Shown in pieces: positions 34,884 to 64,000 of a DNA stretch of 64,000 nucleotides (position 1 is the first letter of the stretch; each line of letters opens with the position of its first letter). Origin of the DNA: a bacterium. GTDB taxonomy: Bacteria > Patescibacteriota > Microgenomatia > Daviesbacterales > UBA10151. The stretch lies in contig JAJYNN010000002.1 in NCBI GenBank assembly GCA_021786315.1, forward strand, positions 100,160 to 164,159, read 5' to 3'. Both the position numbers and the translations under genes were made by a program. Below the pieces are notes generated by a model that saw nothing but the letters and a program-made list of their open reading frames with translations, searched no databases and was not told the origin of the DNA.

Positions 34884-36341
<1,458 letters not shown>

Positions 36342-45795: not shown

Positions 45796-46068
45796 GACTC
45801 TTTATTTGATTTCCCCTAGAGGTTGTGGTACTACATGCATATGACTGTTGAAAGTAGAGAGAATCATACATCTGAGGATACATCCAGTGATGAACATTTA
45901 AAACTAGGAATGGAGCTGTTGGGGTTAATTACTGCGGCTACTATTATAGCCGGATTATTAGGCAGTAGTGATGATGGGGCTGTAAGTGCTGTAAGACAAT
46001 ATTTCTTTGATAATTTATCCCGAATATTTCATTGACATCACTGCATTGTGCAAGTTACGATAGGTTTA

Positions 46069-47124
46069 ATGCTCAAAGTTGCCATTAATGGCTTTGGCCG
46101 GATTGGCCGGGCCGCCTTTAAGATTGCTTTAGAAAAGTTTCCCCAGGAGGTTGAAGTTGTGGCCATCAACGATTTAACCGATCCTCACATTTTAGCCCAT
46201 CTTCTCCAATTCGACAGCGCCTTTGGCCGCTGGGATAAAGAGGTTTTTGCAGACGATAATTCCATTACAGTTGATGGTAAACAATACCCAATATTTGCTG
46301 AAAAGGTCCCTGCAAACATCCGATGGGGCGATATAGGGGCGGAAATTGTCATTGAAAGTACCGGGAAATTTGTCGACGAGGAGGGGATGAAACAGCATCT
46401 TTTAGGGGGAGCAAAGAAGGTGGTTCTTTCTGCGCCTTGCAAGACCGGCAATGTTCCAACTTATATTATTGGAGTTAACCACTTCCGCTACCAGGGTGAA
46501 CCGCTAATTAATAACGGATCCTGTACCACCAACTGTGTGGCCCCGATTGCCGCCATTATGGATGAAAAGTTTGGGGTTTTAAAGGCTTTGATGACCACTA
46601 CCCATGCAGTCACGGCGGAACAAAACTTGGTTGACGGCCCGCCTCCGGGAGGCAAATCTCAGGATCTCCGCCGGGCCCGGGCAGCCTATACCAACATTAT
46701 TCCCACTACCACCGGGGCGGCGGTGGCTACCACTGAAGCTATCCCGACTTTAAAAGGACTTTTTGATGGCCGGGCCTTAAGGGTTCCGGTAATTGACGGC
46801 TCGATTACTGACTTTACTTTCCTGGTAAAAAAGAAAACCACAGTTGAGGAAGTTAATCAGGCCTTTAAAGATGCGGCGGGGGGAGAGAGGTGGCAGGGGA
46901 TTATTACCTGGAGTGACGATTCGTTAGTCTCCTCGGATATTATCGGCAAAAGTGAGTCGGCCATAGTTGATTTGCCTTTAACCCAGGTAGTTGACGGGGA
47001 CTTAATCAAGATTTTGGCTTGGTATGACAACGAATGGGGCTATTCCAACAGGCTAGTGGAACAGGTAATAAATATTGGGAAGGTTAAAGATACTCCATTA
47101 TCAGCTCCAGCCACTCCTGATTGA
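46069..47124 (+). CDS. gap: glyceraldehyde-3-phosphate dehydrogenase
   Basis: MLKVAINGFGRIGR, active-site SCTTNCVAP and WYDNEWGYS. Start set at the second Met; the longer ORF begins at 46048. Confidence 0.9.
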   Translation: MLKVAINGFGRIGRAAFKIALEKFPQEVEVVAINDLTDPHILAHLLQFDSAFGRWDKEVFADDNSITVDGKQYPIFAEKVPANIRWGDIGAEIVIESTGKFVDEEGMKQHLLGGAKKVVLSAPCKTGNVPTYIIGVNHFRYQGEPLINNGSCTTNCVAPIAAIMDEKFGVLKALMTTTHAVTAEQNLVDGPPPGGKSQDLRRARAAYTNIIPTTTGAAVATTEAIPTLKGLFDGRALRVPVIDGSITDFTFLVKKKTTVEEVNQAFKDAAGGERWQGIITWSDDSLVSSDIIGKSESAIVDLPLTQVVDGDLIKILAWYDNEWGYSNRLVEQVINIGKVKDTPLSAPATPD

Positions 47125-47566: not shown

Positions 47567-48072
47567 TAGCCAAAAGATACTCAACAAAAAGGCATACGGT
47601 GAATGCCTTGGTCGAAAGTACCGATGAAGGACGTACTAGGCGACGATACTCTGCGAGGAGCTGCCAAGAAGCTTTGATCCGCAGGTTTCCGAATGGAGCA
47701 ATCCACTCTGGTTAATCCCAGAGGACCCATAAGTAAATACATAGCTTATGGGAGGGCACGCGCTGAACTGAAACATCTAAGTAAGCGCAGGAAGAGAAAT
47801 CAATTAGAGATTCCCCCAGTAGCGGCGAGCGAAAAGGGAAGAGCCCAAACCACGCATCACCTTAGGCAGCAATGCTTAAGACGCGTGGGGTTGTAGGACT
47901 GACAGTAGCGAGTAGCGAGGATAGCTGAAGACTCTGGAAAGAGTTGCCAAAGAGGGTGATAGCCCTGTAAGCGAAATCCAAACTGCCGTGGTCAGATTCC
48001 TGAGTACCCTAGGACACGTGTAATCCTGGGTGAATCTACGTCGACCATGACGTAAGGCTAAATATACTTTCG

Positions 48073-48112
<40 letters not shown>

Positions 48113-48845
48113 AAGAGCGGAACGCTCAGTGAAATAGTACCTGAAACCGTATGTTGACAAGCTGTGGAACTCGCGATTTATCGCGAGAACCGCGTGCCTA
48201 TTGAAGAATGAGCCGGTGAGTTACTTTGCATTCCAAGTTTAAGTGCCGTAAGGCGCGAAGGCGTAGTGAAAGCGAGCCTGAATGAGCGAAAGCTCCTGTC
48301 TTTGACAGTAGGGCGTTTAGGAGTGCACAGTAGACCCGAAACCGTGTGAGCTATCCATGTCCAGGGTGAACTTCTGCGAAAGCAGGAGGGAGGCCCGAAC
48401 CCGTTACTGTAGCAATAGTTTGGGATGAGATGTGGTTAGAGGTGATATGCCTAACGAACACGGAGATAGCTGGTTCTCCCCGAAATATATCTAGGTATAG
48501 CCCTGTGCAAGTTTGTAGGGGGTAGAGCTCTGGCTGGAACTAGGTGGCGCAAGCTATCTATTCCAATCAAACTTCAAATACTTACAAACGTAGCAGGAGT
48601 CAGTCCGATCCGGCTAAGCGGAGCGGGCTCGAGGGAAACATCCCGAACCGACAGTTAAGGTCCCTAAATACAGACTAAGTGTTAAAGGATGTAAAGTTCC
48701 TTAGACAGCCAGGAAGTTGGCTTAGAAGCAGCCATCTTTTAAAGAAAGCGTAACAGCTCGCTGGTCTACTACGGAATTTTGCGCCGACAATGAATCGGGG
48801 CTCAAGTCTGTTACCGAAACTACGGGTGCTTGTCCGTTGGACAAG

Positions 48846-48963
48846 AATTTTCAAGTACCAATTACCAATTTACAATGAATTTTCAATGACCAAATGTTTT
48901 AAACATTTGAAAATTTAGACATTGAGATTTGTTTGAAAATTGAAAATTGAAAATTGGAATTTC
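48846..48963. repeat. AT-rich repeat insertion within 23S rRNA (between ...GTCCGTTGGACAAG and TCGTCCTTCGGACGAG...)
   Basis: gaaaattgaaaattgaaaattgg repeats plus the palindrome caaatgttttaaacatttg interrupt an otherwise conserved 23S helix. Confidence 0.6.
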
Positions 48964-49794
48964 TCGTCCTTCGGACGAGTGCGGTAGGGGAGCGTTCTGG
49001 AGGGAGTGAAGCTCATGGTGTAAACCAGGGTGGACCGTCCAGAAGTGAGAATGCCGGTATGAGTAACGAAATTCCAGTGAGAAACTGGAACACCGAAAGC
49101 CCAAGGTTTCCGATCCAATGTTAATCAGGGTCGGGTTAATCGGCACCTAAGACGAGGCCAGATGGCGTAGTCGATGGAAGACCCGTCAAAATTCGGGTAT
49201 TAGGCTTTTCTGATAAAAACTTTACGGGTGGACAAAGTGGGAATAACCCAGTCCTCTATATGGGGATTTAAGCAACGAATTAGTGGGTGTAGGAAAATCC
49301 GCACCAGCTTTCCAAGAACGACTTAAGTCACTTATGTGGCTTAAGCTATCTTAAGTGATTTATCGTTTAAGGGAGCTAATCACGTTTGAAGTGAGTTGCG
49401 ACGACGTAAGTGGGTGATTTTCTGTTTTCAGGAAAAGACTCGTAAAGGAGAAAAGTTATAGCCGTACCATAAACCGACACAGGTGGGCGAGTTGAGTATA
49501 CACAGGTGATCGAGAGAACTATCCTTAAGGAACTCGGCAATACAGCTGGACGTAAGTTAGCAAGATGTCCCGCCCTAGACCGCAAGGTTGTGGGGTTGCA
49601 ACAAAAGACGCTGAGCGACTGTTTAACAAAAACACAGGTCCGTGCCAAAGCGAAAGCTGATGTATACGGGCTGACACCTGCCCAGTGCCAGTAATTTAAA
49701 ACTGTCTTTGACTCCTTGGAGCAATCCTTGGACGAGGAGGTGGTCTAAGATCTGGTGAACGGCAGCAGTAACTATAACTGTTCTATGGTAAGAT

Positions 49795-50443
49795 TCGTTG
49801 CCTTAGAAGGTGGTGTGTTTTGGATAATTCTGCTATATGCTGGAAAATCTGAGAATCCGGTGCTACTATGGTGTAATCTTCCCATAGATATGCCGAGTAA
49901 CAATGTATCCGGTGCAGAAAATCAGCAGGAAAGACTTAAGATTTGTGGCTGGATAGTTGGTTTTACTGATGGGGAAGGGTGTTTTTCCGTTTCCATCTTT
50001 AAAAACAGGACAACCAAGAGCGGATTTCAGGTAATGCCTGAATTTGTGATTACCCAAGGTCAAAAAAGTTTGAGCTCCTTAGAGCTTGTTAAAAACTTCT
50101 TTGGTTGTGGCGCTATTTATGTAAATAGACGCCACGATAATCACACGGAGAATATCTACCGCTATTGCGTCCGTTCAATTAAAGATTTGCAGGAGAAAAT
50201 AATACCTTTTTTCAAAGAAAATCAGCTAAGAACCAGCAAAAAAGAGGACTTTAACTTATTTTGTAGGGCAGTGGAGATGGTTTTAAATCGTCAACACTTA
50301 ACCGCAGAAGGTTTAAAGATTCTTCAAGATCTTAAGAATCCTCAGAAACCACACGCAGAACCCTGAAATTTCAGGGAAGATATGGTTCGAACTATGTGGC
50401 GACACATAGGATTTAGATCAAAGGAAGTCTAATAATAAAATGT
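49795..50443 (+). mobile_element. group-I-type intron in 23S rRNA (inserted in the GGTAAG|GCGAAATTCC region, E. coli ~1917-1931 equivalent). Boundaries are approximate.
   Basis: Exon sequence GTAACTATAACTGTTCTATGGTAAG resumes at GCGAAATTCCTTGTC after about 650 nt that contain a LAGLIDADG ORF. Confidence 0.6.
49890..50366 (+). CDS. LAGLIDADG homing endonuclease (intron-encoded)
   Basis: ICGWIVGFTDGEGCFSVSI matches the LAGLIDADG motif, with a second half-motif LVKNFFGCGAIYVN. Start set at the internal Met because the upstream part of the ORF is 23S exon. Confidence 0.65.
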   Translation: MPSNNVSGAENQQERLKICGWIVGFTDGEGCFSVSIFKNRTTKSGFQVMPEFVITQGQKSLSSLELVKNFFGCGAIYVNRRHDNHTENIYRYCVRSIKDLQEKIIPFFKENQLRTSKKEDFNLFCRAVEMVLNRQHLTAEGLKILQDLKNPQKPHAEP

Positions 50444-50914
50444 TGAGCGAAATTCCTTGTCTGGTGAGTTCAGACCCGCACGAAAGGTAGAACGACTTAG
50501 CGACTGTCTTGAGGATAGACTCGGTGAAATTGCAGTGGCTGTGAAGATGCGGCCTTCCCATACTTGGACAAAAAGACCCCGTGGAGCTTTACTGCAGCTT
50601 GGCCCTGATTTGAAAACTTAACTGTGTAGTGTAGGAGGGAGATTCGTCGTCAATGAAACACCTCTCTTTTAAGTTTTTAAGTCTCAACCTTAGCCATAAA
50701 CTGGCAAGGCGACAAGGTCTGGCGGGCAGTTTAACTGGGACGGTTTCCTCCAAAAACGTAACGGAGGAGTACAAAGGTGCACTTAGATCGGATGGCAATC
50801 GATCGTAAAGCGTAAAAGTAAAGAGTGCGCTTGACTGTGAGACCTACAAGTCGAGCAGGTGCGAAAGCAGGTTTTAGTGATCCCTACTTACCTCATGGGA
50901 GGGAGTAGGCTTAT

Positions 50915-50948
<34 letters not shown>

Positions 50949-51223
50949 GATACCCAACAGTCCACAAGGACGGTATCGTTCGGCACCTCGATGTCGGCTC
51001 ATCGCAGCGTGGGGCTGTAGAAGGTCCCAAGCGTCTGGCTGTTCGCCAGTTAAAGCGGTACGCGAGCTGGGTTCAAACCGTCGTAAGACAGGTTGGACTC
51101 TATCCAGTATGGGCGTTTGAAACTTGAGGGGAGTTATCTTTAGTACGAGAGGACCGAGATGAGGAAACCTCTAGTGTGCCAGTTGTCCCAAAAGGGCAGC
51201 GCTGGGTAGCTACGTTTCTTTAT

Positions 51224-51254
<31 letters not shown>

Positions 51255-51424
51255 AGACCCCAAGATTAGGTTTCTTTATTAGACCCCTGGAAGACTACCA
51301 GGTTGATAGGTTGCCGGTGTAAGCATAGCAATGTGTTTAGCCTAGCAATACTAATGGTCAAAGTTGAGATTTTTTGGCTTGAAGCCTTTAGAAGTCGTAT
51401 TCACATTTTGAAGTAGCAAAGAAA

Positions 51425-51683: not shown

Positions 51684-52262
51684 ATGTCTGCTCGAAACCG
51701 TGGTTTTACTCTGATAAGTCTACTTTTGCGACGCAAAAGATCTTGTCAAGGTTTCACCTTGATTGAACTCTTAGTTGTTATTTGTATTGTGGCAATCCTT
51801 GGTACCGTTGCTTTATTGGTTTATACCAATACTTTAAAAAGTGCCAGAATGGCAAAGAGAATTGGGGATTTGCAAAGTATTAATACGGCAATTGAATTGT
51901 ACCGGGATGAGAACAATCATTACCCAATTGCTACTAATTGGCGCTCTGAGTGTGCCAAAGGTGGTAATTTAAACCCCGATGATGTTGTCCCCGGATTAGT
52001 CCCTAAATATACCCGGATATTTCCTTCTGATCCCTTAATGGTTAAAAACACCAACTCTTCCTGTTATATGTATATCTCCAATGAAGATGGATCGGGATAT
52101 AAACTTTTGGATTATCAAATCAGTGAATTTACCCCCGCTGATTACTTAAAGGAGAGGGGGCTAATAGATCCGGCCCGGGATGGGGGATCGGATCCCTGCA
52201 AGGTGGACGGAGATTCACCGGAGGCCTGGGGTTTTTATACCTATAATGCCTGTGCCCTTTAA
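51684..52262 (+). CDS. type IV pilin / pseudopilin-like protein (prepilin N-terminal domain)
   Basis: QGFTLIELLVVICIVAILG matches the class III signal G|FTLIE. An upstream partial duplicate GFTLISLLL is present. Confidence 0.6.
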   Translation: MSARNRGFTLISLLLRRKRSCQGFTLIELLVVICIVAILGTVALLVYTNTLKSARMAKRIGDLQSINTAIELYRDENNHYPIATNWRSECAKGGNLNPDDVVPGLVPKYTRIFPSDPLMVKNTNSSCYMYISNEDGSGYKLLDYQISEFTPADYLKERGLIDPARDGGSDPCKVDGDSPEAWGFYTYNACAL

Positions 52263-52375: not shown

Positions 52376-52493
52376 GTCCGGTGATTTGAGCGGTGCGGAA
52401 CCACCCTTTCCCATTCCGAACAGGGTCGTGAAACACACCAGCGCAGACGATACTAGGGTCGAAAGGCCTCGGGACAATATGTCATTGCCGGGA
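52376..52493 (+). rRNA. rrf: 5S ribosomal RNA (3' boundary uncertain; a duplicated 3'-end segment follows)
   Basis: TGTCCGGTGATTTGAGCGGTGCGGAACCACCC...CCCATTCCGAACAGGGTCGTGAAAC aligns with the bacterial 5S 5' half. GTCATTGCCGGGA occurs at 52481 and again at 52569. Confidence 0.5.
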
Positions 52494-52590: not shown

Positions 52591-52620
52591 AACCTCCTAA
52601 ACGGAGGTTTTTTGTTCTTT
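52591..52620 (+). terminator. rho-independent terminator after 5S
   Basis: cctcc-taaac-ggagg hairpin followed by ttttttgttcttttt. Confidence 0.6.
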
Positions 52621-52631
52621 TTAAACCCTTG

Positions 52632-52739
52632 TATAAGCAGAGCTTGAAATCTTTGCTTCTCAAAAATTATAAGCAGAGCTTGAAATCTTTGCTTCTCAAA
52701 AATTATAAGCAGAGCTTGAAATCTTTGCTTCTCAAAAAT
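52632..52739. repeat. perfect tandem repeat, 36 bp x 3
   Basis: tataagcagagcttgaaatctttgcttctcaaaaat repeated three times with no spacers. Not CRISPR-like. Confidence 0.9.
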
Positions 52740-54647: not shown

Positions 54648-54682
54648 ATTTTATAACTTAAAATTTAAAATTTAGATTTATC
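54648..54682. repeat. AT-rich repeat, inverted partner of 54243-54275
   Basis: cttaaaatttaaaatttagatttatc. Confidence 0.55.
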
Positions 54683-57600
54683 ATGGTTTACTGTCCACGA
54701 TCCACCAGTCGAAGGTGATGTCCTGGGCTTGGGCCTGGTTAAGCTGGACTGTAAATGACTGGCCAACACTCTTGGAGGAAACACCCAGGGTTACCGGCTG
54801 GTGGGGGGTGAGGAAGATCCTGGAAGTGGCGGTAACCTGGTCGGTATTTACAATCAGGGTTGTTTGTCCGGCAGGGATAGTGGCAGTGGACAAAGTTTGG
54901 GAGGAGACCTCTACTTTTTGAACACTTATCTTACCCGTATTGTCGATTTGGGCTTTCCCATTGAAGAAATCAACCAGCGTTGCCAACGGTGAATTCTGGA
55001 TAAACAAGGCGCCGATGGAGTTGACGGAGTTGCCGGTCAAAGACATTGTTCCGTCAACTGTGAAATCGCCGGCAATAGTGGTGCTGGCCAAAGAGGTAGT
55101 ACCCAAAGATTTGAAGGTATCGGAGATTGTCGCCTGGTAGGCGGTCAGTTGTCCGGAGATTGTTGCCTCGGAAGCCACTGAAAGGTTAGCCAAAACAGCG
55201 GAACCGGTGGCCAGCAGCACATCCGGGGAGGTCAGCTTTAAGTTATCGACATCGGATTGGACTTTGGCCAATTGGGCGGAAGTTGAGGCCAGCTGAGCGG
55301 AGTTGGAAGCCAACTGGGCAGAAGTGGAAGCAATTTGGGCCGAGGAGGAAGCAATTTGGGCTGATAACACATCCGCTTGGGCTTGAACCGCGGCCAGTTG
55401 GGTATCAATGGTCTTTAAGGTGGAAGCTACCTCAATATAGTTGGTTCCTGCCTGGTACTGGATGGCGGAAGTGGAGGCAACCGGCTGGCCGGAAGCAGTT
55501 AAGCCTGAGGAATCCAGGGAGTTGTCGGCCACCTTAAGTTCGCCTGAAATGGTCGCTTCACTGGTGACTGCAATCTGGTCTACCTTAAGAGACGGGGTTT
55601 GCAGTGACCCATTGGTATTGACACTTAAGTTGAAGCTGGAGACTTGGGCCACGTAGCTGTTAATCTCATCCTGTTGTTCTTTAACTGAATTAATAAGCCC
55701 AAAAGTCAAGGCTCCGTAGTTTACCTCTTTCACCTGGGTTAGAGTTGTATCGGTCGGATAAAGTTGTACCTCCCTGGTGCTTACAAGTTGGGGCGCCACC
55801 TGTTCTACCTGCTGGGCAATAAGACCTGATTTGATATTCCCGTCGTCAAGCGTTCCCCCAAGGCCGTTGTATTGGAAAGTTACGGGGTTGAGGCCGAGTA
55901 TTTCTTTCAGGCCGAGGTTAACGGGATTAATGTTCTTTTTCAGCCTGATATCAGATAAACAGGCTCCTAATGTCCCGCCGTTGTAAGTAAGGCATCCCTG
56001 GATGGATCCATTTCCTGCAGAATCTACGATAAACCGATTTGTGCCGTTTATTTGCATGATAATTTGTCCGCTGGCATTTCCATTGGCTATATACCAAAGA
56101 CTTCTTTCTGTTCCAATGCCGGCACCGTTTACCCTGGTTTCACCCTGAGAGTCATGGACAACAAGCGGCGCTACTGCATTCGGCATTGTTGTTCCGATAT
56201 AAACATTTCCGGAGGCATAAGCATTTCCGCTGACGTTAAGGCCGGCGGAATTTACTACGCCATTCTTTTGTACTGTGAACGGGTAAGAGTTCCAGGCGGC
56301 GTTACCGAGGGTAATGGCGTTATACGTTGGATTAGTGTCATTGCCGGGCTGGATGCGGATAATATCTGTTCCGGTGTTGTTGTAGGCATAAAGGGATGTT
56401 GCCCTGGCTGTTCCGGCTACATCTAGTGCAGTTCCCGGAGTTCCTACTCCGATACCTACACCTCCTGTGCCGCCACTGGTTTGGAGTAACAAATAGCCTG
56501 CACCTTTTGAATCAAGCATAAGGTTATTGGTTGCATTGGTACCACTCTCATAAATATGGTTATATCCAATGTTTACTGATTGGGTTGAATTAAGGGGCAG
56601 GACTGATAAGTAAGCTTCAGTCCCATTAGTTGGGCTTTGAATTGTCAGTACTGATCCCGGATTGGTAGTCCCAATACCCACATTACCTGAGTTTTTGAAT
56701 GTTACCTTATCTGACCACCCTCCGCCATCTGTACGGATTGCGACGTCATTGCCGTTACCCAGTATTTTTGTTACTCCACCTTCTATACCAAATTGAGCAT
56801 ACTTAGTTGCATTATTAGAATCATGTAACCGGATCCAGTTATCTCCAGTAAAGGACAAATCTAGTTTGTAGCCTGGACTAGTTGTCCCGATACCCACATT
56901 GCCCCCGGCAGCTATTGTCATCTTGATTGAATCATTGGTTCCGATATTGACAGGGTGGTTGCTGTAAGTCCAAAGATTCATGGCTCCTGGGCCCAGTCCG
57001 TCAGTACCGCCGTTAAGAGACAGGTATCCATTAATTGTGCCGGTGGTACTATAGAGGTGCATTTGCGAGTACTGGCTGGTTGGACCCTGGACATAAATGG
57101 CATCGTTTGAATCCACAGATGACCGGGTTGTTCCTCCAAACATAGCAAGTCCGTTAACATTAAATTTGACCAGAGGGCTCGTTGTTCCAATACCCACATT
57201 CCCGGTAAAGTAGGAGTTGCCACTGCCGCTAACAGCCAGTGTCCCGCCGACGGTTAAATTACCGGAGTTAGATAGGGACATAATCGCGTTATCCAGATTT
57301 CCGGCTGTCCCATCCACCCAGCGGAAGCCTGCGCTGGAAGTTTCACCGCTGACAAATGATAACCAGTCAGCCCTGTTGCTGTATACACCTATAAATGGTG
57401 TGCCCCAACTGGAAGTGGGGAATTTGATATAGTTCAGGTTATCAACCCTGATATTCCCATTAACTTCCAGCTTCTCTCCAGGACTGGTTGTCCCAATACC
57501 CACATTGCCAGCAAATGAGCTGCTGCCTGACCCTTGAACTGTAAGTGTACCAAGTAAAGTTGCATTTCCTTGAGTTCCGGCATTGTAATCAGTGCTGACA

Positions 57601-60600
57601 CTAAATACAGTTGATTGTGAACTACCGTTATTCCCCCGGAATTGAATCTTAGTTCCGCTACCATAAACTCCATTATCAAGATCCAAGTAATTAGAGCTAT
57701 CAAAGGTTAATACGTTTCGGGCGATAGCATCTGATCCTTTCCACTGAATGGGTTGGTTATTATCAAGTAGCAAAGCCCCTCCTACAACCTGAAGCTTAGT
57801 TGTGGGACTTGTTGTCCCGATACCAACATTACCATTGGTAAGTCTCATTACCTCGGCCGAGTTGGCTTTAAGCGCTAGGGCTGTATTGTTATTGCCGATA
57901 TCACCAATACCAATTGGCCCTCCTCCGGGGAAGTTAAGGACACCTCCGCCGTTGACGTTGAGTTGGGTGCTAGCATTGATGGTCCCCTTGACATCCAAGG
58001 CAACCTGAGGACTGGTTGTCCCAATACCCACATTGCCGCTGCTGGTAATTCTAAGCCGTTCATGTTGGCTATTATCTTGGTCTACATTAAAAGACATAAA
58101 TGTATCTATATTGGAACCGGTTCCCCAATCAGCAGCCTCTTTTCCTACTCTTATCCATGCCCCGTTTAGTTGTCTTGTATCGGGCGAAAACTGAATTCCT
58201 GCTGTCTGAGTGGTGGTGTTGGATTGGTCTGAATTAGCTATACGGATACCACTAACATTGCCTGTTGCTGTATTGGTTATATCGAGAAATTGTCCCGGAC
58301 TGGTTGTCCCAATACCCACATTGCCGCTGATATACATTTGAGGATCCGCATTGTAGGCAGTGGTAACTTTGAAGTAGCCGTTGCCGGAAGATCCGGTGGC
58401 GGAGATTAAATTACCCGTATTGGCTGAGGAAAGAACGATGTTGGCTCCCGTATTTGTTCCGGCGCCGGTAGCAATATACAAACCGCTCATATTGCCGCTG
58501 CCCGGACCACTTATCCTAAGCGCATAACCGGAAGAGTTGTTGCCCAGGATATCTAATACCGCTCCCGGGCTGGTTGTGCCTATACCTACATTACCGTTAC
58601 CCTGAACAAGAAACTTTGTGTCGGGAGTTCCGTCTGCATCAACTGTCAGTTTTAGGAGATTAAAGGCTGAGCTGGCTGTTCTGTAGGCTTCGCCTCGGAT
58701 CAGGTCGCTGGCAAATGCCGAGCCGTCAGTAGCAATTACCTGTAGTCCGGGATTACCTTGCCCACTAAACACAGAGATCAAAGGAGCAACAGAGATGGTG
58801 GAAGGCTCCGTAGTTTGGGTAGTGGCAATTAAACTCTTACCGGCTGAGTCATAGAAGTTACTTGTACCCACCACATCTAATTTGTAACTTGGGTTGGTTG
58901 TCCCGATACCCACATTGCCGTTTGTATCTACCCTCATTCTTTCTGCAGCCACTCCACCGTTGTTTGTATTGAAGATAAGGTTTGAGATACCGGAACTATA
59001 TCCGATATTAAGGTTTGATCCGTTAAGTTCAAGCGAACCAATTTCCGCTAGCCTTAGTAGTCCGCTGCCTCCGGAAGTTCCCACATTGATGATGTCGTTG
59101 CCCCGTACATCAAGCGTGTAGGTTGGGTTGGTTGTCCCGATACCCACACTACCACCTGTTTTGATATACATACTAGCAGAGGTACCTTCTTTAAATTGCA
59201 TATCTTTACCTGAAGCGGTAATGAGAGTGGTAATATCGCTGGTATCTTTTCCAAGTAGAGCCCTGATAGTCCCGCCACTATCTTTAGCTCCGTAGTAATT
59301 TCCATTAGCTATAACTAAAGAGTTGGCGTCAGCTCCTCCGGTAGCCAGTTCCAGTTTGGCCAAGGGTGCAGTTGTGCCTATACCTACATTACCTGATTTA
59401 ATAATCCTGATCCTATCCTGAAGACTTGAACCATCTGTTAAGGATAAAGAGATATATGGTTCATCAGGAACAGCTCCAGTTGGCCTTCCGTAGGCTTTAA
59501 ACTGAGCCATAGCGGTACCGCTGGAACTAAAATTAATTGTTTTTGGCGATTCGCCATAATCATTATCAATAGTTAAAGTTGTGCCTGATGTAGTAGCGGC
59601 TCCTTTTAGGTGTAGTAGGCTTGTTGGTGCAGTTGTGCCTATACCCACATTACCACCAGATTTAATAATCATGTTAGTAACTGTTCCTCCGCCTCCACCC
59701 TGGAAATAAACATCATTTGCAAAATCTCTTCCGAAATAGATTGGGTTACTACTTGGATTATCGATGTTAAATCCATTACTCCAAGCCCTAAATCTACCTT
59801 GATCTACATCGGAATTGTTAGCAACAAATACGTCACCTCTATTTACTCTTAGGGCAGAAACTCCTGAGGTGCCCAATACTTGCAAATTTGAATTCGGTCC
59901 AGTTGTCCCAATACCCACATTCCCATATCTATCGATAACCATTCTGGGAGAGGGTGTAGTCAGGCCAGTGGCAAGGACAATATCCCTATTGTAGGTAGTA
60001 ACCCGGGGCTGGATAATGAGATTCCCGCTTTCTGCAAAAGGATAACTTGAACCGTTACCAGCTGAGTTATAAATCAAAGGAGCAACACTGGTGTTGTATG
60101 AGCTGGTGGAACCAGTTAGCTGAAGGTAACCATTAGCATTTATATTCCCATTTACATCAAGATTGTATCCCGGATTAGTTGTACCAATACCTACATTCCC
60201 GTTGTCCATGATGACAAATTTATCAACGCTATTGTTGTCCTGGGTGCGGAAAGTAAAGCCTGTGGTGGTGCCGGCACCCTTAACTTGTAACTTGGCAGTT
60301 GCATCACCTGAACCGGCACCGCCTACCATTACATTGTTGGCTGAGCCAATGGAGATTGCCCCCTGGTTGCTGGAGGCGGTGTAGGTGAGGTTTAATCCAT
60401 AACCGTTGGTAAAAATATCACCCCGTTGGGTAGTATTATCGATAAAGACTATCTGGGAGCTGTCGCTTGTGCTGGCTGAGTTGATAGTGATTCGGGGATC
60501 ACTGCCCTTTAGGAGTATCCCGGCATTTCTATTAGCGTTTACTACATGAAGAGTATCAGTAGGACTGGTTGTCCCAATACCTACATTACCAGCTGAGGTT

Positions 60601-63600
60601 AGAGTCATGCCAACTGCTGAATTTCCGCCTAATTCAAGATTTCCTACACCAACAACTCTTAAGTCATTAGAGGCAGTGCCTGCACCTATACTTCCTCTGT
60701 TAGTCAAAATATAGGAAGTATCATTTCTGATAGAACCACCCACTACGTGTAGTAAAGCTGAAGGAGCAGTTGTGCCTATACCAACATTTCCGTTGCTGCT
60801 TTGGATAAACATTCTACTAACGTTGGCCGGGGCAAAGGAAATATCTCCATCTCCACCTCCACCTCCATTGCCTGTAACAAGCCTTAAGTCACCAGTAGTT
60901 TCTATTTCCTGATGGCCTGCACTTAAACCATCGTTAGTGTTATTTATACTGGGGGACATCTTTAGTGCTCTACTTACATCAGAACGGACCAGACGGAAGT
61001 AAATAGAATCAGCATTGGCTGCATCCATCTCTAGTTTTGCTAAAGGACTGGTTGTCCCAATACCTACATTGCCACCAGTGGCATTTAACAAGGTATTATT
61101 GCCTCCATAATTAATGGCTAGAGGCTGGGAATCATAGGATTGGATAAGCTTAAATGAATCAAGTTTTCCAATTAATAACCCAACCCCCACGCTTCCTTGC
61201 GCTGGGACGCTTGTCCCAAAGGAAGTTGTATTGATACCAACATCTGTTCCTACCGAAAGAAGAACTTTTGGATTGGTGTTTCCGATACCAATGTTGCCGG
61301 CGGAGTTAATTCTCATTCTTTCGGTTACATTGGTATCCCCGGGGGCTGTAGTGCGGAAGACTATGGCTCCAGGCATGGAAGTGGCTGAAGTAACCCCGTC
61401 TATATCAAAGTCTATTCTGGCTGCGGACAGGAAACTGCTAACACCGTCACTTCCTCTACCAATCAACATCATGATGTGGCTGTTGGCTGCGGGTAACGCG
61501 TGAACGCCTTCGGTGTCGCTTGCCGATTTATTAAATACCAAAACCGCGCTGCCGGTGTTGTTCCACCAGTTGTTCATGGCTATTCCGCCATAAGTGGTGG
61601 GTTGATTATTAAGTTCCATTAGCTCTGATAGCCCTCCTGTACTGTATTTTTGATTTCCATTGATAAACACATTACCGGAAGAATTAACCTGGAATAAATT
61701 ATTTGTTCCGACCGAGAGGAGACTTCCGGGGCTTGTTGTCCCAATACCCACATTACCGGTTGCATCTATAGCTAACCGGGATGCATCGTTGGTGGCCAGG
61801 ATTAAGGAATTACTGTCTGCAGTGCCAACTGCTAAAGTAGCAGCACCACTGGTTATGAAAGCGTTGCCAGCTTTATTTATGCCAAGACTCGTTCCGGCGT
61901 AGGAGGCGCCGTAGACATTTTGATTAAGGTATGCACTAGTGGAGTATTGAACTGAAGTGCTGGCAAATCCAGAAGCGTTATCGTTTTGTACCTTAGATCT
62001 GACCACATCAGCCGTGTTTCCATAAACTTGGAGTTGGTAAGCTGGGCTGGTTGTTCCAATACCTATATTACCATTGGAGGCAATCCTCATTTGCTCAGTA
62101 CCCCCGGTGGCAAGGTTTAAAGTATTAGCTTCTGAGGTGAAGATTCCTGTGTCTGTGTCACTGCTGAAGGTAAAGGTTGGGACTGATGCAGAACCGTTGC
62201 CTGCTCTTAGTGCGTTGGCAAGCGTTGCATAGCCGTCTTTTCTAACGGCAAATTGGGTAGCGCTTCCTACCTGCAAATCAATAAGATTGGAAGCAGCTCC
62301 GGAGGATGTATCAGTAACATTTAGTTTGATGCCGTTTTTAGTACCTGCATCGTTCCAGGTTACAGTGGCATTCATGACTGGGATATCTGAGGTGATGGTA
62401 CCTAAAGCAATATCCAGCTTTGCTCCCGGACTTGTTGTCCCGATACCCACATTACCTGATCCGATACCATTTGTTATAGAAAGACCGGAATTGAGAGTGA
62501 ATTGTTTGTTGGTAATATCCCAACTCATTAGGGCGTTGGGGGTGGCAGTCCCTCTCTCGAAGATCAGGTTCATCGCCTCAGCGTCATCCGTAGCATTATC
62601 AGCATTAATAGTCCAATCGTTGGAGTTGGTACTCCCGCCGACAACTACACCGATCAAGGAAGTGGCGTTGACAGTATCCGCATAAACCGTGCCAAACTTG
62701 GTGCCGGCATCACCGATATTGATGTTGCCGGTGGAGGCGGTAATGGCTCCGGTTACCTGGGTGGCTCCCAGCCGGGCATTGCCGTTGACATCCAGTTTAT
62801 AAATTGGGGCGGTGGTGGCAATGCCGATATTGCCGTTACTCTCTATTGTGATACCATTTGTTGCGGAACCTCCGGTGGTAAGCCTTAATGTATTACCGGT
62901 AAGTCGGTATAGCCCGGTATCGGTGTCTCCGGTAAAAGATAGGGCGGGTGTGGATGCTGTTCCGTCAGGTAAAAGGGTATAGCCGGAGGAATTAACCTGG
63001 AACAGGTCTCCGTTTCCTACTACGAATAAAGCAGCTGGGGAACTGTCGTTAATTCCCACATTTCCGGCTCCGGTAATAGTCATTCGGGTATTGCCTGTCT
63101 GGGTGGTGTTGTTAGTAGCGGTATTAAAGTTAATATTGGTAACGGCATTCATGGTGTTTCTGCCTCCGCCCAAAGTCATTGCTCCGTTATCAGAAAAGAC
63201 CAGACCGTAAGGCTCTTCTCCGGCAAGATTATGCCTGGCAGCAAGACCGCCCCATCTGCTAGTTCCGTCACCAGCAGCTCCGCTGCCGACTGTCAAAACG
63301 GGGGTGCCGTTGGGGTTGTAAATAATCGGGTCAGCACTGATATCGATCACCGTTTGGTTATCTGACCTTTTAATGAGGCCGGTGGAGATTTGGATGCTGC
63401 CTATAACATGCAGAGCAGAAGATGGCGAAGTGGTACCTACCCCGACGTTGCCGGTAAAGTAGGAGGCTCCGGAGCCGTTAACGTTTAGCACTCCGGCAAC
63501 TTGGGTGATAGCGTTGTTGATGGTAGCGGTGCCAGTTGCGGCTCCCAGGGAGATGGAAGTGGCCGCACCGCCGATATTGAGGGCAGTGGCGTTGGCATTA

Positions 63601-64000
63601 AACAAACTGGCGGTGGCGGCAGTAGTGGAAAGCGTTCCGCCGCTTACTGCTAGGTTTTCGGAAAAGGTGCCCGATCCGGTGATATCCAAGGCGGTTGCGG
63701 GGGAGGTGGTTCCAATACCGACGTTACCGCTGGTGTTAATGGTCACTCCGTTGCCGGCAGTACCCCCGGTAATTAAGGCGATGGTGTTGGAATCCAGCCT
63801 GTATAACCCGGAATCGGTGTCGTTGGTAAACCTTAGTGCCGGGGAGGCAGCTGTACCGTCAGGTAGGGAAACAAAATTTCTGAACCTGGTGGATCCGGCA
63901 ATATCCAGATTGTTATTGATTGTTGTAGTTCCTGAAGAAGCCCCGATATTTACCGCGGTAGCGGCTCCACCGAAATTGATGGTGGTAGCAGTATCGTTGA
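54681..64000 (-). CDS. giant repetitive surface/fibre protein (more than 3,100 aa, 5'-partial). 40 or more NVGIGTTSP-type repeats, an internal Peptidase_S74-like intramolecular chaperone motif, a SAQIAS coiled coil and a C-terminal domain.
   Basis: The ORF stays open to the window end. The annotated M at 63746 is an in-frame GTG inside the repeat series. The S74 signature ACLSDIRLKKNINPV is encoded at about 55925-55965. The coiled coil reads AQADVLSAQIASSSAQIASTSAQLASNSAQLASTSAQLA. Confidence 0.7.
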   Translation of the reverse strand, partial: NDTATTINFGGAATAVNIGASSGTTTINNNLDIAGSTRFRNFVSLPDGTAASPALRFTNDTDSGLYRLDSNTIALITGGTAGNGVTINTSGNVGIGTTSPATALDITGSGTFSENLAVSGGTLSTTAATASLFNANATALNIGGAATSISLGAATGTATINNAITQVAGVLNVNGSGASYFTGNVGVGTTSPSSALHVIGSIQISTGLIKRSDNQTVIDISADPIIYNPNGTPVLTVGSGAAGDGTSRWGGLAARHNLAGEEPYGLVFSDNGAMTLGGGRNTMNAVTNINFNTATNNTTQTGNTRMTITGAGNVGINDSSPAALFVVGNGDLFQVNSSGYTLLPDGTASTPALSFTGDTDTGLYRLTGNTLRLTTGGSATNGITIESNGNIGIATTAPIYKLDVNGNARLGATQVTGAITASTGNINIGDAGTKFGTVYADTVNATSLIGVVVGGSTNSNDWTINADNATDDAEAMNLIFERGTATPNALMSWDITNKQFTLNSGLSITNGIGSGNVGIGTTSPGAKLDIALGTITSDIPVMNATVTWNDAGTKNGIKLNVTDTSSGAASNLIDLQVGSATQFAVRKDGYATLANALRAGNGSASVPTFTFSSDTDTGIFTSEANTLNLATGGTEQMRIASNGNIGIGTTSPAYQLQVYGNTADVVRSKVQNDNASGFASTSVQYSTSAYLNQNVYGASYAGTSLGINKAGNAFITSGAATLAVGTADSNSLILATNDASRLAIDATGNVGIGTTSPGSLLSVGTNNLFQVNSSGNVFINGNQKYSTGGLSELMELNNQPTTYGGIAMNNWWNNTGSAVLVFNKSASDTEGVHALPAANSHIMMLIGRGSDGVSSFLSAARIDFDIDGVTSATSMPGAIVFRTTAPGDTNVTERMRINSAGNIGIGNTNPKVLLSVGTDVGINTTSFGTSVPAQGSVGVGLLIGKLDSFKLIQSYDSQPLAINYGGNNTLLNATGGNVGIGTTSPLAKLEMDAANADSIYFRLVRSDVSRALKMSPSINNTNDGLSAGHQEIETTGDLRLVTGNGGGGGDGDISFAPANVSRMFIQSSNGNVGIGTTAPSALLHVVGGSIRNDTSYILTNRGSIGAGTASNDLRVVGVGNLELGGNSAVGMTLTSAGNVGIGTTSPTDTLHVVNANRNAGILLKGSDPRITINSASTSDSSQIVFIDNTTQRGDIFTNGYGLNLTYTASSNQGAISIGSANNVMVGGAGSGDATAKLQVKGAGTTTGFTFRTQDNNSVDKFVIMDNGNVGIGTTNPGYNLDVNGNINANGYLQLTGSTSSYNTSVAPLIYNSAGNGSSYPFAESGNLIIQPRVTTYNRDIVLATGLTTPSPRMVIDRYGNVGIGTTGPNSNLQVLGTSGVSALRVNRGDVFVANNSDVDQGRFRAWSNGFNIDNPSSNPIYFGRDFANDVYFQGGGGGTVTNMIIKSGGNVGIGTTAPTSLLHLKGAATTSGTTLTIDNDYGESPKTINFSSSGTAMAQFKAYGRPTGAVPDEPYISLSLTDGSSLQDRIRIIKSGNVGIGTTAPLAKLELATGGADANSLVIANGNYYGAKDSGGTIRALLGKDTSDITTLITASGKDMQFKEGTSASMYIKTGGSVGIGTTNPTYTLDVRGNDIINVGTSGGSGLLRLAEIGSLELNGSNLNIGYSSGISNLIFNTNNGGVAAERMRVDTNGNVGIGTTNPSYKLDVVGTSNFYDSAGKSLIATTQTTEPSTISVAPLISVFSGQGNPGLQVIATDGSAFASDLIRGEAYRTASSAFNLLKLTVDADGTPDTKFLVQGNGNVGIGTTSPGAVLDILGNNSSGYALRISGPGSGNMSGLYIATGAGTNTGANIVLSSANTGNLISATGSSGNGYFKVTTAYNADPQMYISGNVGIGTTSPGQFLDITNTATGNVSGIRIANSDQSNTTTQTAGIQFSPDTRQLNGAWIRVGKEAADWGTGSNIDTFMSFNVDQDNSQHERLRITSSGNVGIGTTSPQVALDVKGTINASTQLNVNGGGVLNFPGGGPIGIGDIGNNNTALALKANSAEVMRLTNGNVGIGTTSPTTKLQVVGGALLLDNNQPIQWKGSDAIARNVLTFDSSNYLDLDNGVYGSGTKIQFRGNNGSSQSTVFSVSTDYNAGTQGNATLLGTLTVQGSGSSSFAGNVGIGTTSPGEKLEVNGNIRVDNLNYIKFPTSSWGTPFIGVYSNRADWLSFVSGETSSAGFRWVDGTAGNLDNAIMSLSNSGNLTVGGTLAVSGSGNSYFTGNVGIGTTSPLVKFNVNGLAMFGGTTRSSVDSNDAIYVQGPTSQYSQMHLYSTTGTINGYLSLNGGTDGLGPGAMNLWTYSNHPVNIGTNDSIKMTIAAGGNVGIGTTSPGYKLDLSFTGDNWIRLHDSNNATKYAQFGIEGGVTKILGNGNDVAIRTDGGGWSDKVTFKNSGNVGIGTTNPGSVLTIQSPTNGTEAYLSVLPLNSTQSVNIGYNHIYESGTNATNNLMLDSKGAGYLLLQTSGGTGGVGIGVGTPGTALDVAGTARATSLYAYNNTGTDIIRIQPGNDTNPTYNAITLGNAAWNSYPFTVQKNGVVNSAGLNVSGNAYASGNVYIGTTMPNAVAPLVVHDSQGETRVNGAGIGTERSLWYIANGNASGQIIMQINGTNRFIVDSAGNGSIQGCLTYNGGTLGACLSDIRLKKNINPVNLGLKEILGLNPVTFQYNGLGGTLDDGNIKSGLIAQQVEQVAPQLVSTREVQLYPTDTTLTQVKEVNYGALTFGLINSVKEQQDEINSYVAQVSSFNLSVNTNGSLQTPSLKVDQIAVTSEATISGELKVADNSLDSSGLTASGQPVASTSAIQYQAGTNYIEVASTLKTIDTQLAAVQAQADVLSAQIASSSAQIASTSAQLASNSAQLASTSAQLAKVQSDVDNLKLTSPDVLLATGSAVLANLSVASEATISGQLTAYQATISDTFKSLGTTSLASTTIAGDFTVDGTMSLTGNSVNSIGALFIQNSPLATLVDFFNGKAQIDNTGKISVQKVEVSSQTLSTATIPAGQTTLIVNTDQVTATSRIFLTPHQPVTLGVSSKSVGQSFTVQLNQAQAQDITFDWWIVDSKP
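56880..63740. repeat. intragenic imperfect tandem repeats (period about 250-330 nt) with a recurring conserved ~24-mer ggttgtcccgatacccacattgcc
   Basis: The 24-mer and close variants recur at roughly 56886, 57190, 57490, 57822, 58020, 58308, 58900, 59132, 59905, 60180, 60570, 61050, 61738, 62052 and 62432. Confidence 0.75.

Follow-up and report, generated by a model that had tools for sequence, protein, structure and literature searches.

Background

Group I introns inserted at position 1931 of the large-subunit (LSU) rRNA gene (L1931, Escherichia coli numbering) have been described from Simkania, Thermotoga, and Synechococcus, where they are 654-700 nt long and carry single-motif LAGLIDADG genes of 143-167 aa (Haugen et al. 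2007, PMC1995217). These bacterial introns are IC1-like, are without a P2 helix, and have a complex P5 and open reading frames (ORFs) that enter the ribozyme core, and introns of the same kind occur in green-algal organelles and Acanthamoeba mitochondria (PMC1995217). Archaeal LSU/1931 introns are typed as IB4 (Nawrocki et al. 2018, PMC6125680). In bacteria of the candidate phyla radiation (CPR), insertions are present in 82% of 23S rRNA genes, LAGLIDADG_1 ORFs are concentrated at positions 1917, 1931, 1952, 2593, 2604, and 2657, and I-ShaI, an endonuclease of a CPR 23S intron, cleaves its site and cross-links as a dimer (Tsurumaki et al. 2024, PMC11270868). Here an insertion in the 23S rRNA gene of a CPR genome is analyzed, which lies in a 64,000-nt stretch of contig JAJYNN010000002.1 (GenBank assembly GCA_021786315.1), referred to below as the window. 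The insertion, at 49790-50445 of the window, is very probably a mobile group I intron that belongs to the L1931 lineage described above and has its own homing endonuclease gene.

Methods

The 23S rRNA gene of the window was aligned globally with that of E. coli (locus L001) using MAFFT. Relatives of the encoded protein were gathered as 30 loci from one scan of a genome collection, and in 16 of these the gene lies in an intron at the same junction as in the window. Four more introns were added through exact-protein look-ups, which gave a 21-sequence alignment including the window, with endonuclease identities of 45-76%; an earlier test version of the alignment used 17 sequences. The structure was scored with pseudoknot notation for P7 and a layer of its own for P10, and the controls were the same helices with their 3' partners slid by 1-3 columns. 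Pairing and covariation values refer to the 21 introns except where the 17-sequence version is named. Coordinates of the features are collected in Table 1.

Results and discussion

Insertion site and splice junctions

A complete bacterial 23S rRNA gene was located at 47576-51374 (Rfam, 2317 bits); it spans 3799 nt, compared with 2925 nt for the Rfam model. The alignment with E. coli places one insertion of 656 nt directly 3' of U1931. The 5' exon ends in GUAACUAUAACUGUUCUAUGGU at 49789, and the AAG that had been assigned to the exon in the preliminary description (see below) is intron. The 3' exon, which the Rfam LSU model resumes at exactly 50446, begins with AGCGAAAUUCCUUGUC and reads AGCGAAAUUCC from A50446, so the ligated exons read GGU followed by AGCGAAAUUCC, as in E. 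coli, and ligation restores the E. coli sequence GGUAGCGAAAUUCC. The junction at L1931 is common to the window and 20 further loci. A preliminary description of this DNA had reported an interruption of conserved 23S sequence at 49795-50443, in the 1917-1931 hotspot region; the observation and the placement stand, and the boundaries have been moved by 5 nt at the 5' end and by 2 nt at the 3' end. The combination of this insertion with an intact ORF is not attributable to chance.

Group I fold of the intron

In the alignment, 92.9% of cells form standard pairs, compared with 33-39% in the slid controls, compensatory changes are present in 36 of 66 pairs, and none of 500 column shuffles reached the observed values. 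When P3 and P7 were scored as nested helices without crossing, only 13% and 2% of their cells were paired; the data therefore require P3 and P7 to cross, the topology by which group I introns are defined.

Both splice sites are tied to the internal guide sequence. The last seven nucleotides of the 5' exon pair with GCCUUAG to form P1 (87% of cells paired), in which the wobble U49789.G49800 at the 5' splice site is U.G in all 21 family members, and UUCGUU, just upstream of the P1 guide, forms a 6-bp P10 with the start of the 3' exon (79% of cells paired). Within the core, P3 is 100% paired with covariation in five of its six pairs, P4 is invariant and 100% paired, P6 is 97.6% paired with covariation in two of six pairs (for example CUAAAAA/UUUUUAG in locus L016), and P7 is 96-98% paired with three covarying pairs. 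In the extended P5 domain, P5 is 96% paired (three of four pairs covarying) and P5a 97.5% (four of four), and the 17-sequence version gave 72% pairing for P5b. In the 3' domain, P9 is 100% paired, with five of seven pairs covarying and a conserved GCGA tetraloop, and P9.1 is 88% paired, with covariation in all five pairs. No P2 was found between P1 and P3 of the window intron, and some relatives have a hairpin there. By the conventions of Burke et al. 1987 and Cech, the classical elements are CUAUAUGCUGGAAAA (P), AAUCAGCAGG (Q), UCAGAAACCACACG (R), and AAGAUAUGGUUC (S).

The insertion has a group I fold and lies at L1931. The group I intron proposed in the preliminary description, for which P1-P9 pairing had been suggested as a check, is thus supported by the site, the splice-site signatures, P1-P10, and a core whose P3/P7 pseudoknot is backed by covariation. 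The subgroup is likely IB4-like, in a form without P2 and with an extended P5.

Homing endonuclease

The ORF runs from ATG 49890 to TGA 50364-50366, is intact, and contains IVGFTDGEGCFSVSI. The 158-aa LAGLIDADG protein noted earlier is therefore present at full length, and the frameshift that had been named as a possible objection is absent from this single-motif gene. The protein matches Pfam LAGLIDADG_1 with 91.9 bits (E 5.3e-26, cut-off 23.1) as one domain spanning residues 22-127 (67-172 of the 203-aa query that was scanned). The motif residue E29 aligns with the GEG or AEG of solved enzymes (GFTSGEG / GFVDAEG), and GFxDGEGCF is invariant in the homologues.

A large protein database contains 2926 homologues, many of which cover 100% of the query; the best are 60-82% identical, 150-195 aa long, and all LAGLIDADG_1 proteins. 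Those that are named belong to 'Candidatus Daviesbacteria' and 'Patescibacteria group', and most come from metagenome-assembled genomes (MAGs) of Patescibacteria type. The single-domain entries 5GKK and I-Vdi141I match the 158-aa protein as well, and so does I-CeuI. A longer, 203-aa version that starts at GTG 49755 (49755-50366) was rejected, as this start sits in the 5' exon of the 23S rRNA gene and the homologues begin at MPS(N/K)N. The public database protein P0001 is this 203-aa version; its length results from the use of the GTG inside the 5' exon in place of the conserved start at ATG 49890.

Since the protein has a single domain and a single motif, it should, by analogy with its family, act as a homodimer. 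A search around the insertion site for a pseudo-palindrome, as a homodimer target, gave at best 5 of 11 symmetric positions, which is uninformative.

Table 1. Positions in the window of the L1931 intron, its structural elements, the encoded endonuclease, and the flanking exon ends
Feature	Position	Strand	Details
5' exon, last 7 nt, CUAUGGU	49783..49789	+	Ends at E. coli U1931; P1 5' strand; alignment to E. coli 23S
Group I intron at L1931, 656 nt	49790..50445	+	Insertion relative to E. coli; covariation-supported fold
Internal guide sequence	49794..49806	+	UUCGUU 49794-49799 (P10), GCCUUAG 49800-49806 (P1)
P3 5' strand, UUCUGC	49828..49833	+	Pairs with GCAGAA 50355-50360
P4 5' strand, P element AUGCUGGAAA	49838..49843	+	Pairs with 49922-49927, Q element AAUCAGCAGG
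Extended P5 domain	49848..49918	+	P5 49848-51/49915-18; P5a 49857-60/49909-12; P5b hairpin 49866-71/49882-87
Homing endonuclease gene (158 aa, one LAGLIDADG_1 domain)	49890..50366	+	Pfam, PDB matches, homologues
P6 5' strand, CUUAAG	49935..49940	+	Pairs with CUUAAG 50331-50336
LAGLIDADG motif IVGFTDGEG	49953..49979	+	E29 acidic at catalytic position
R element / P7 5' strand CAGAAACCA	50343..50351	+	Pairs with UGGUUC(G) 50383-50389; pseudoknot with P3
P8 hairpin CCCUGA-AAUU-UCAGGG	50361..50376	+	95% paired, 4/4 scored pairs covary
J8/7 and S element AAGAUA UGGUUC G, P7 3' strand	50377..50389	+	Rfam model aligns to AAGAUAUAGUC consensus
3' domain	50390..50444	+	P9.0 A50390-U50444, A50391-U50443; P9 50392-98/50403-09; P9.1 50413-18/50427-32
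Terminal (omega) G of intron	50445..50445	+	3' splice site follows; G in 17/21 family members
3' exon, first 6 nt, AGCGAA	50446..50451	+	E. coli 1932-1937; P10 3' strand

Overlap of the gene with the ribozyme core

The gene overlaps the ribozyme core. The start codon lies 3 nt 3' of the P5b hairpin, and the 5' part of the ORF crosses P5a', P5', P4' (Q element AAU CAG CAG, read as N-Q-Q), and the P6 5' strand (CUU AAG, L-K). The ORF has its body in the P6 loop, and its 3' part crosses P6' (CUU AAG, L-K), J6/7, the P7 5' strand (CAG AAA CCA, Q-K-P), and P3' (GCA GAA, A-E) before the stop codon is reached inside P8. The N-terminal peptide NQQERLK and the C-terminal peptide LKNPQKPHAEP are thus encoded by strands of P5', P4', P6, P6', P7, P3', and P8. 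This overlap explains why, within the family, conservation is highest in the peptides NQQERLK and LKNPQ(R/K). Third codon positions have a mean column identity of 0.868 (41% invariant) in the codons that overlap the core and of 0.642 (2.2% invariant) in the rest of the ORF, so that a dual protein and ribozyme constraint on the overlap codons is measurable. Bacterial L1917, L1931, and L2593 introns have likewise been described with ORFs that reach into the core from peripheral loops (PMC1995217).

Comparison with known elements

The nearest described counterpart within the CPR is '23IS7' at position 1931 (PMC11270868), which shares with the window element the clade, the gene, the position class, the Pfam family, the single domain, and group-I-like flanks; among the homologues of the window protein are proteins encoded in MAGs of Daviesbacteria, Gottesmanbacteria, Levyibacteriota, and Woesebacteria. 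Insertions in that survey were classed by coarse alignment and an Rfam model, which the window intron fails. I-ShaI is 36% identical to the window protein, and its synthetic target is centered about 7 nt upstream of 1931, for which reason it may belong to the neighboring L1923 / I-CeuI-like group.

The L1931 introns of Simkania, Thermotoga, and Synechococcus occupy the identical site, and the window intron falls within their range both in length (656 nt compared with 654-700 nt) and in the size of its protein (158 aa compared with 143-167 aa). Compared by description, both are without P2 and have a complex P5 and an ORF that runs from a peripheral loop into the core (PMC1995217). They differ in the host phylum and in the A-U found in the window subclade at the canonical guanosine-binding pair. 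The archaeal LSU/1931 and LSU/1923 IB4 introns (PMC6125680) likewise share the site, in some cases carry LAGLIDADG genes, and are missed by the Rfam group I model RF00028. A link to them is provided by a Pacearchaeota locus (L029) that encodes a 37%-identical endonuclease; they differ in having archaeal hosts, and their subtype was assigned with GISSD covariance models.

Among solved structures, each domain of I-OnuI, I-SmaMI, I-LtrI, I-PanMI, and others (PDB 3QQY, 4LOX, 3R7P, 5ESP, and further entries) aligns with the whole window protein, with per-domain E values of 1e-16 to 1e-25 and full-sequence E values down to 8e-44. Shared features are the GxxDGEG motif and the C-terminal block KxxDFxxFxxxxxLxxxxxHLTxEGL (KKEDFxLFxxAVEMxxNxxHLTxEGL in the window protein). 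In contrast to the window protein, which is single-domain and would have to dimerize, the I-OnuI enzymes are pseudo-dimeric monomers of about 300 aa from fungal mitochondria, mostly in protein-coding genes. On every feature tested, the window element fits the L1931 lineage.

The P7 guanosine-binding pair and rival readings

Several observations weigh against the reading as a mobile group I intron. The window scored only 15.5 bits with RF00028 (E 0.29, at 50251-50409), short of the gathering score of 50, an objection of little weight; no Shine-Dalgarno-like sequence was found upstream of ATG 49890; and in the canonical register of P7 the position homologous to the guanosine-binding pair is occupied by A50347-U50387. 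In the Tetrahymena ribozyme the same G-C to A-U change reportedly does away with normal guanosine-dependent splicing and prevents ligation of the exons, except where the omega G has likewise been changed to A (Michel et al., Nature 342:391, 1989; Been and Perrotta, Science 252:434, 1991); the window keeps its omega G. In the same work the change reportedly shifts the specificity of the Tetrahymena site from guanosine to 2-aminopurine or adenosine.

A match to RF00028 at the gathering score, which had been suggested earlier as a check, was not obtained, and it was not obtained for eight relatives either. The sub-threshold alignment still places the S element AAGAUAUGGUUC and the P8 and P9 hairpins, and RF00028 finds none of the IB4 or IA3 rRNA introns that are detected by subtype-specific models (PMC6125680). 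Given the failure of the eight relatives and this published result, the miss is attributed to insensitivity of the model and is not counted as evidence against a group I intron.

The P7 variant requires closer comparison. In most relatives P7 is G-A(bulge)-GACUA / UAGUC-C, which is the same as in Tetrahymena (C262-G312 / A263 / G264-C311 / A265-U310 / C266-G309 / U267-A308 / A268-U307; PMC10020454) except for the orientation of the first pair. G264-C311 of Tetrahymena is the guanosine-binding pair and the sole P7 pair whose identity is considered fixed; G264A or a 264:311 swap abolishes activity (PMC2860135). The window P7, GAAACCA/UGGUUC, differs in having A-U as its equivalent of G264-C311, provided that the site has not moved by one step in the direction of J6/7. 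The Rfam alignment also sets A50347 and U50387 opposite the G and C of the model. The canonical binding pair is G-C in 15 of the 21 introns and A-U in five, including the window. The four others (loci L152-L155), whose endonucleases are about 72% identical and end in NPQKPHAE, share CAGAAACCA / UGGUUCG, which shows that the A-U variant is not a one-off error. They keep the omega G and have independent compensatory changes in P8, P9, and P9.1. The diagnostic K of the NPQKPHAE C-terminus was present in 5 of the 120 top homologues. The window intron and these four form a small, evolutionarily stable subclade with A-U and omega G.

An alternative register is available, in which C50343-G50389, a bulged A50344, G50345-C50388, and A50346-U50387 reproduce the C-A-G-A / U-C-G arrangement of Tetrahymena. 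In this register G50345-C50388 is G-C in 20 of 21 introns and C50343-G50389 is C-G in 17 of 21. The Tetrahymena P9.0 stacks directly on the top P7 pair (PMC10020454). In the present family, P9.0 formed by the two nucleotides before the omega G with 50390-50391 is kept in 81% of cells and both of its pairs covary (A-U in 13 and G-C in 5; A-U in 11 and U-A in 5), and a register one nucleotide earlier is kept in 71% with no double changes. For all five A-U members the shifted register is the better fit. The covariation of P9.0 favors the shifted register but is no more than suggestive, as these are 2-bp helices. A guanosine site shifted by one helical step in the A-U subclade is the leading account, held at slightly less than even confidence; an A-U site that is weakened yet still used is possible and is given less weight; and a site whose specificity has moved toward adenosine or 2-aminopurine-like ligands, in the manner of the engineered Tetrahymena mutant, is very improbable.

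The strongest rival explanation, although unlikely, is that the element is of group I descent and has lost self-splicing, being kept in the mature 23S rRNA or removed or fragmented by host factors, with the fold retained only to hold the insert clear of the ribosome and to permit endonuclease expression. It would account for the A-U pair in the window and four relatives, at a position where G264A or a 264:311 swap kills the Tetrahymena ribozyme (PMC2860135), and the title of Everett et al. 1999, as cited in PMC1995217, calls the Simkania L1931 intron 'unspliced'. Decay of the splicing site appears to occur in the family: the omega position is A or C, not G, in 4 of 22 related L1931 introns (L002, L014, L026, and L023:3629), and such copies may be splicing-defective or decaying. 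Against loss of splicing in the window, the replacement of G-C by A-U is an exact compensatory change that persists in five diverged members, all of which keep the omega G, the U.G wobble, P10, P9.0, and all core helices, with further compensatory changes elsewhere, and the alternative register, which the P9.0 covariation fits better, retains G50345-C50388.

Two readings raised as possible refutations in the preliminary description found no support. An intervening sequence (IVS) processed by RNase III, whose excision with no ligation afterwards would leave the 23S rRNA in fragments, is of negligible probability. Such sequences are common in bacterial 23S genes and in the CPR (PMC11270868), and the same 23S gene has an IVS-like extension of helix 45 (described below). 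The first and last 60 nt of the L1931 insertion, in contrast, form a duplex of -19.1 kcal/mol, at the level of shuffled sequences (-19.4 +/- 3.5 kcal/mol) and far from the -40.0 kcal/mol of the helix-45 insert, so the reading was ruled out for want of a terminal stem beyond shuffle level; a full group I core with covariation also opposes it. Position 1931 is not known to host IVSs. Equally negligible is an intron of group II or of some other type, such as an archaeal bulge-helix-bulge intron, carrying the LAGLIDADG gene, a reading for which LAGLIDADG-encoding group II-like insertions at position 1400 of CPR 16S genes offer a precedent (PMC11270868) and which was ruled out because the P/Q/R/S elements, the P3/P7 pseudoknot, the U.G wobble, and the omega G are group I hallmarks, no group II family is among the Rfam matches at E <= 10, and the only ORF is the LAGLIDADG gene.

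Proposed splicing and homing

For the mobile, self-splicing group I intron favored here, splicing, translation, cleavage, and homing are inferred from sequence features only. The intron RNA would fold into the P3-P9 core, and the internal guide would pair with the 5' exon in P1, with U1931.G at the splice site, and then with the 3' exon in P10. Two guanosine-dependent transesterifications would excise the intron and rejoin the rRNA between GGU and AGCGAA. The endonuclease, as a homodimer, would cut intron-less 23S rDNA around position 1931, the predicted target being DNA that carries CTATAACTGTTCTATGGTAGCGAAATTCCTTGTC, and repair of the cut allele would copy the intron in.

Intron-less alleles, which the preliminary description had suggested looking for among relatives, do exist. 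An exact scan found the uninterrupted junction TAACTGTTCTAWGGTAGCGAARTTCCTTG, which carries the H69 sequence variant typical of the window lineage, in at least 120 metagenome contigs; among the matches listed, the closest empty site (L108) is 87.7% identical to the ligated exons of the window over 986 nt, and another listed contig is 85% identical. Related organisms therefore contain empty target sites, which is what the patchy distribution of a homing element would lead one to expect.

Related introns and other insertions

Further variation was noted around the same site. In L109:11988-12407, which is intron-less at 1931, the part upstream of the site matches the window with 87.7% identity and similarity is lost about 24 nt past the junction, which suggests a different insertion near E. 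coli 1951-1955. Locus L014 has both upper P7 pairs flipped to C-G in addition to its altered omega position. An Acidimicrobiia MAG (OZ244163.1, L023:2577-3629) has twin introns 8 nt apart, in the order of an ORF-less group I intron of about 252 nt after GTAACTATAACGGT (about E. coli 1923), the exon CCTAAGGT, and an L1931 intron with a LAGLIDADG gene.

A set of 24 IMG/VR viral contigs (L174-L197) shares the R element GAATCCTCAGAGACYANACG without 23S exon sequence. An S element lies within about 60 nt of the R element in 17 of them, the canonical pair is G-C in all 24, and they look like phage group I introns that share the core of the window intron. The R element of the A-U variant, GAATCCTCAGAAACCA, gave only unrelated or chance matches in viral contigs, all of them lacking a nearby S element.

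The 23S rRNA gene of the window has additional expansions relative to E. coli at 47875-47926 (52 nt), 48280-48305 (26 nt), 49304-49388 (21 and 44 nt), and 49699-49710 (12 nt), and deletions corresponding to E. coli 1708-1717, 2132-2158, and 2794-2809. Helix 45 (E. coli about 1162-1179) is extended by about 136 nt at window positions 48826-48978; this extension forms one long hairpin (-60.6 kcal/mol, z = -6.9) whose ends form a duplex of -40.0 kcal/mol, and its position and shape are as in RNase III-processed intervening sequences.

Host and genomic surroundings

The nearest genome matches of the endonuclease include MAGs of Gottesmanbacteria, Daviesbacteria, Levyibacteriota, Paceibacterota, and Woesebacteria. 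Several of the closest genome records, including the best match, are labeled 'uncultured Gammaproteobacteria' and are taken as mislabeled. The named relatives of the neighboring GAPDH, at about 70-75% identity, belong to Daviesbacteria, Microgenomates, and Patescibacteria. As judged from these two proteins, the host, whose single 23S rRNA gene carries the intron, appears to be a Microgenomates-group CPR bacterium, in agreement with the CPR origin suggested at the outset.

The rRNA genes do not form a compact operon. The 16S rRNA gene is at 34884-36338 and the 5S rRNA gene at 52377-52493 (Rfam). The 11 kb that separate 16S from 23S contain tRNAs and protein genes, among which are those for GAPDH (46048-47124) and for a 773-aa protein of glycosyl-hydrolase/dockerin-like type. 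Between 23S and 5S there is a pilin-like gene (51684-52262) with an N-terminal methylation motif (Pfam 2.5e-10), and the same order of 23S followed by an N_methyl gene is found at L152. Just 3' of the 5S gene, at about 52600-52720, there is a short tandem DNA repeat that shows as a threefold-repeated peptide in each of the two overlapping ORFs (IIFEKQRFQALL / YKQSLKSLLLKN). A 3021-aa ORF on the minus strand (54681-63746) contains dozens of repeats with GNVGIGTTSP, and its C-terminal part looks like the intramolecular-chaperone (peptidase S74-like) end of tail-fiber or large surface proteins.

Conclusions

Among CPR genomes such an element is ordinary, and published surveys already cover it; what is newly defined for it are the exact junctions, the fold, and the overlap of the ORF with the core. 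The genome carries a typical CPR hallmark, an rRNA gene split by a selfish pair of intron and endonuclease, and the exact splice junctions matter for rRNA annotation, for phylogenetic placement, and for removal of the spurious 203-aa call. The intron is also a clean case in which a protein gene and a ribozyme core share identical nucleotides. The A-U variant of P7 is the sole feature that could reach beyond annotation and interest ribozyme specialists: if the guanosine-binding site has in fact been re-specified or relocated, the subclade would offer a natural experiment on the active site of group I introns.

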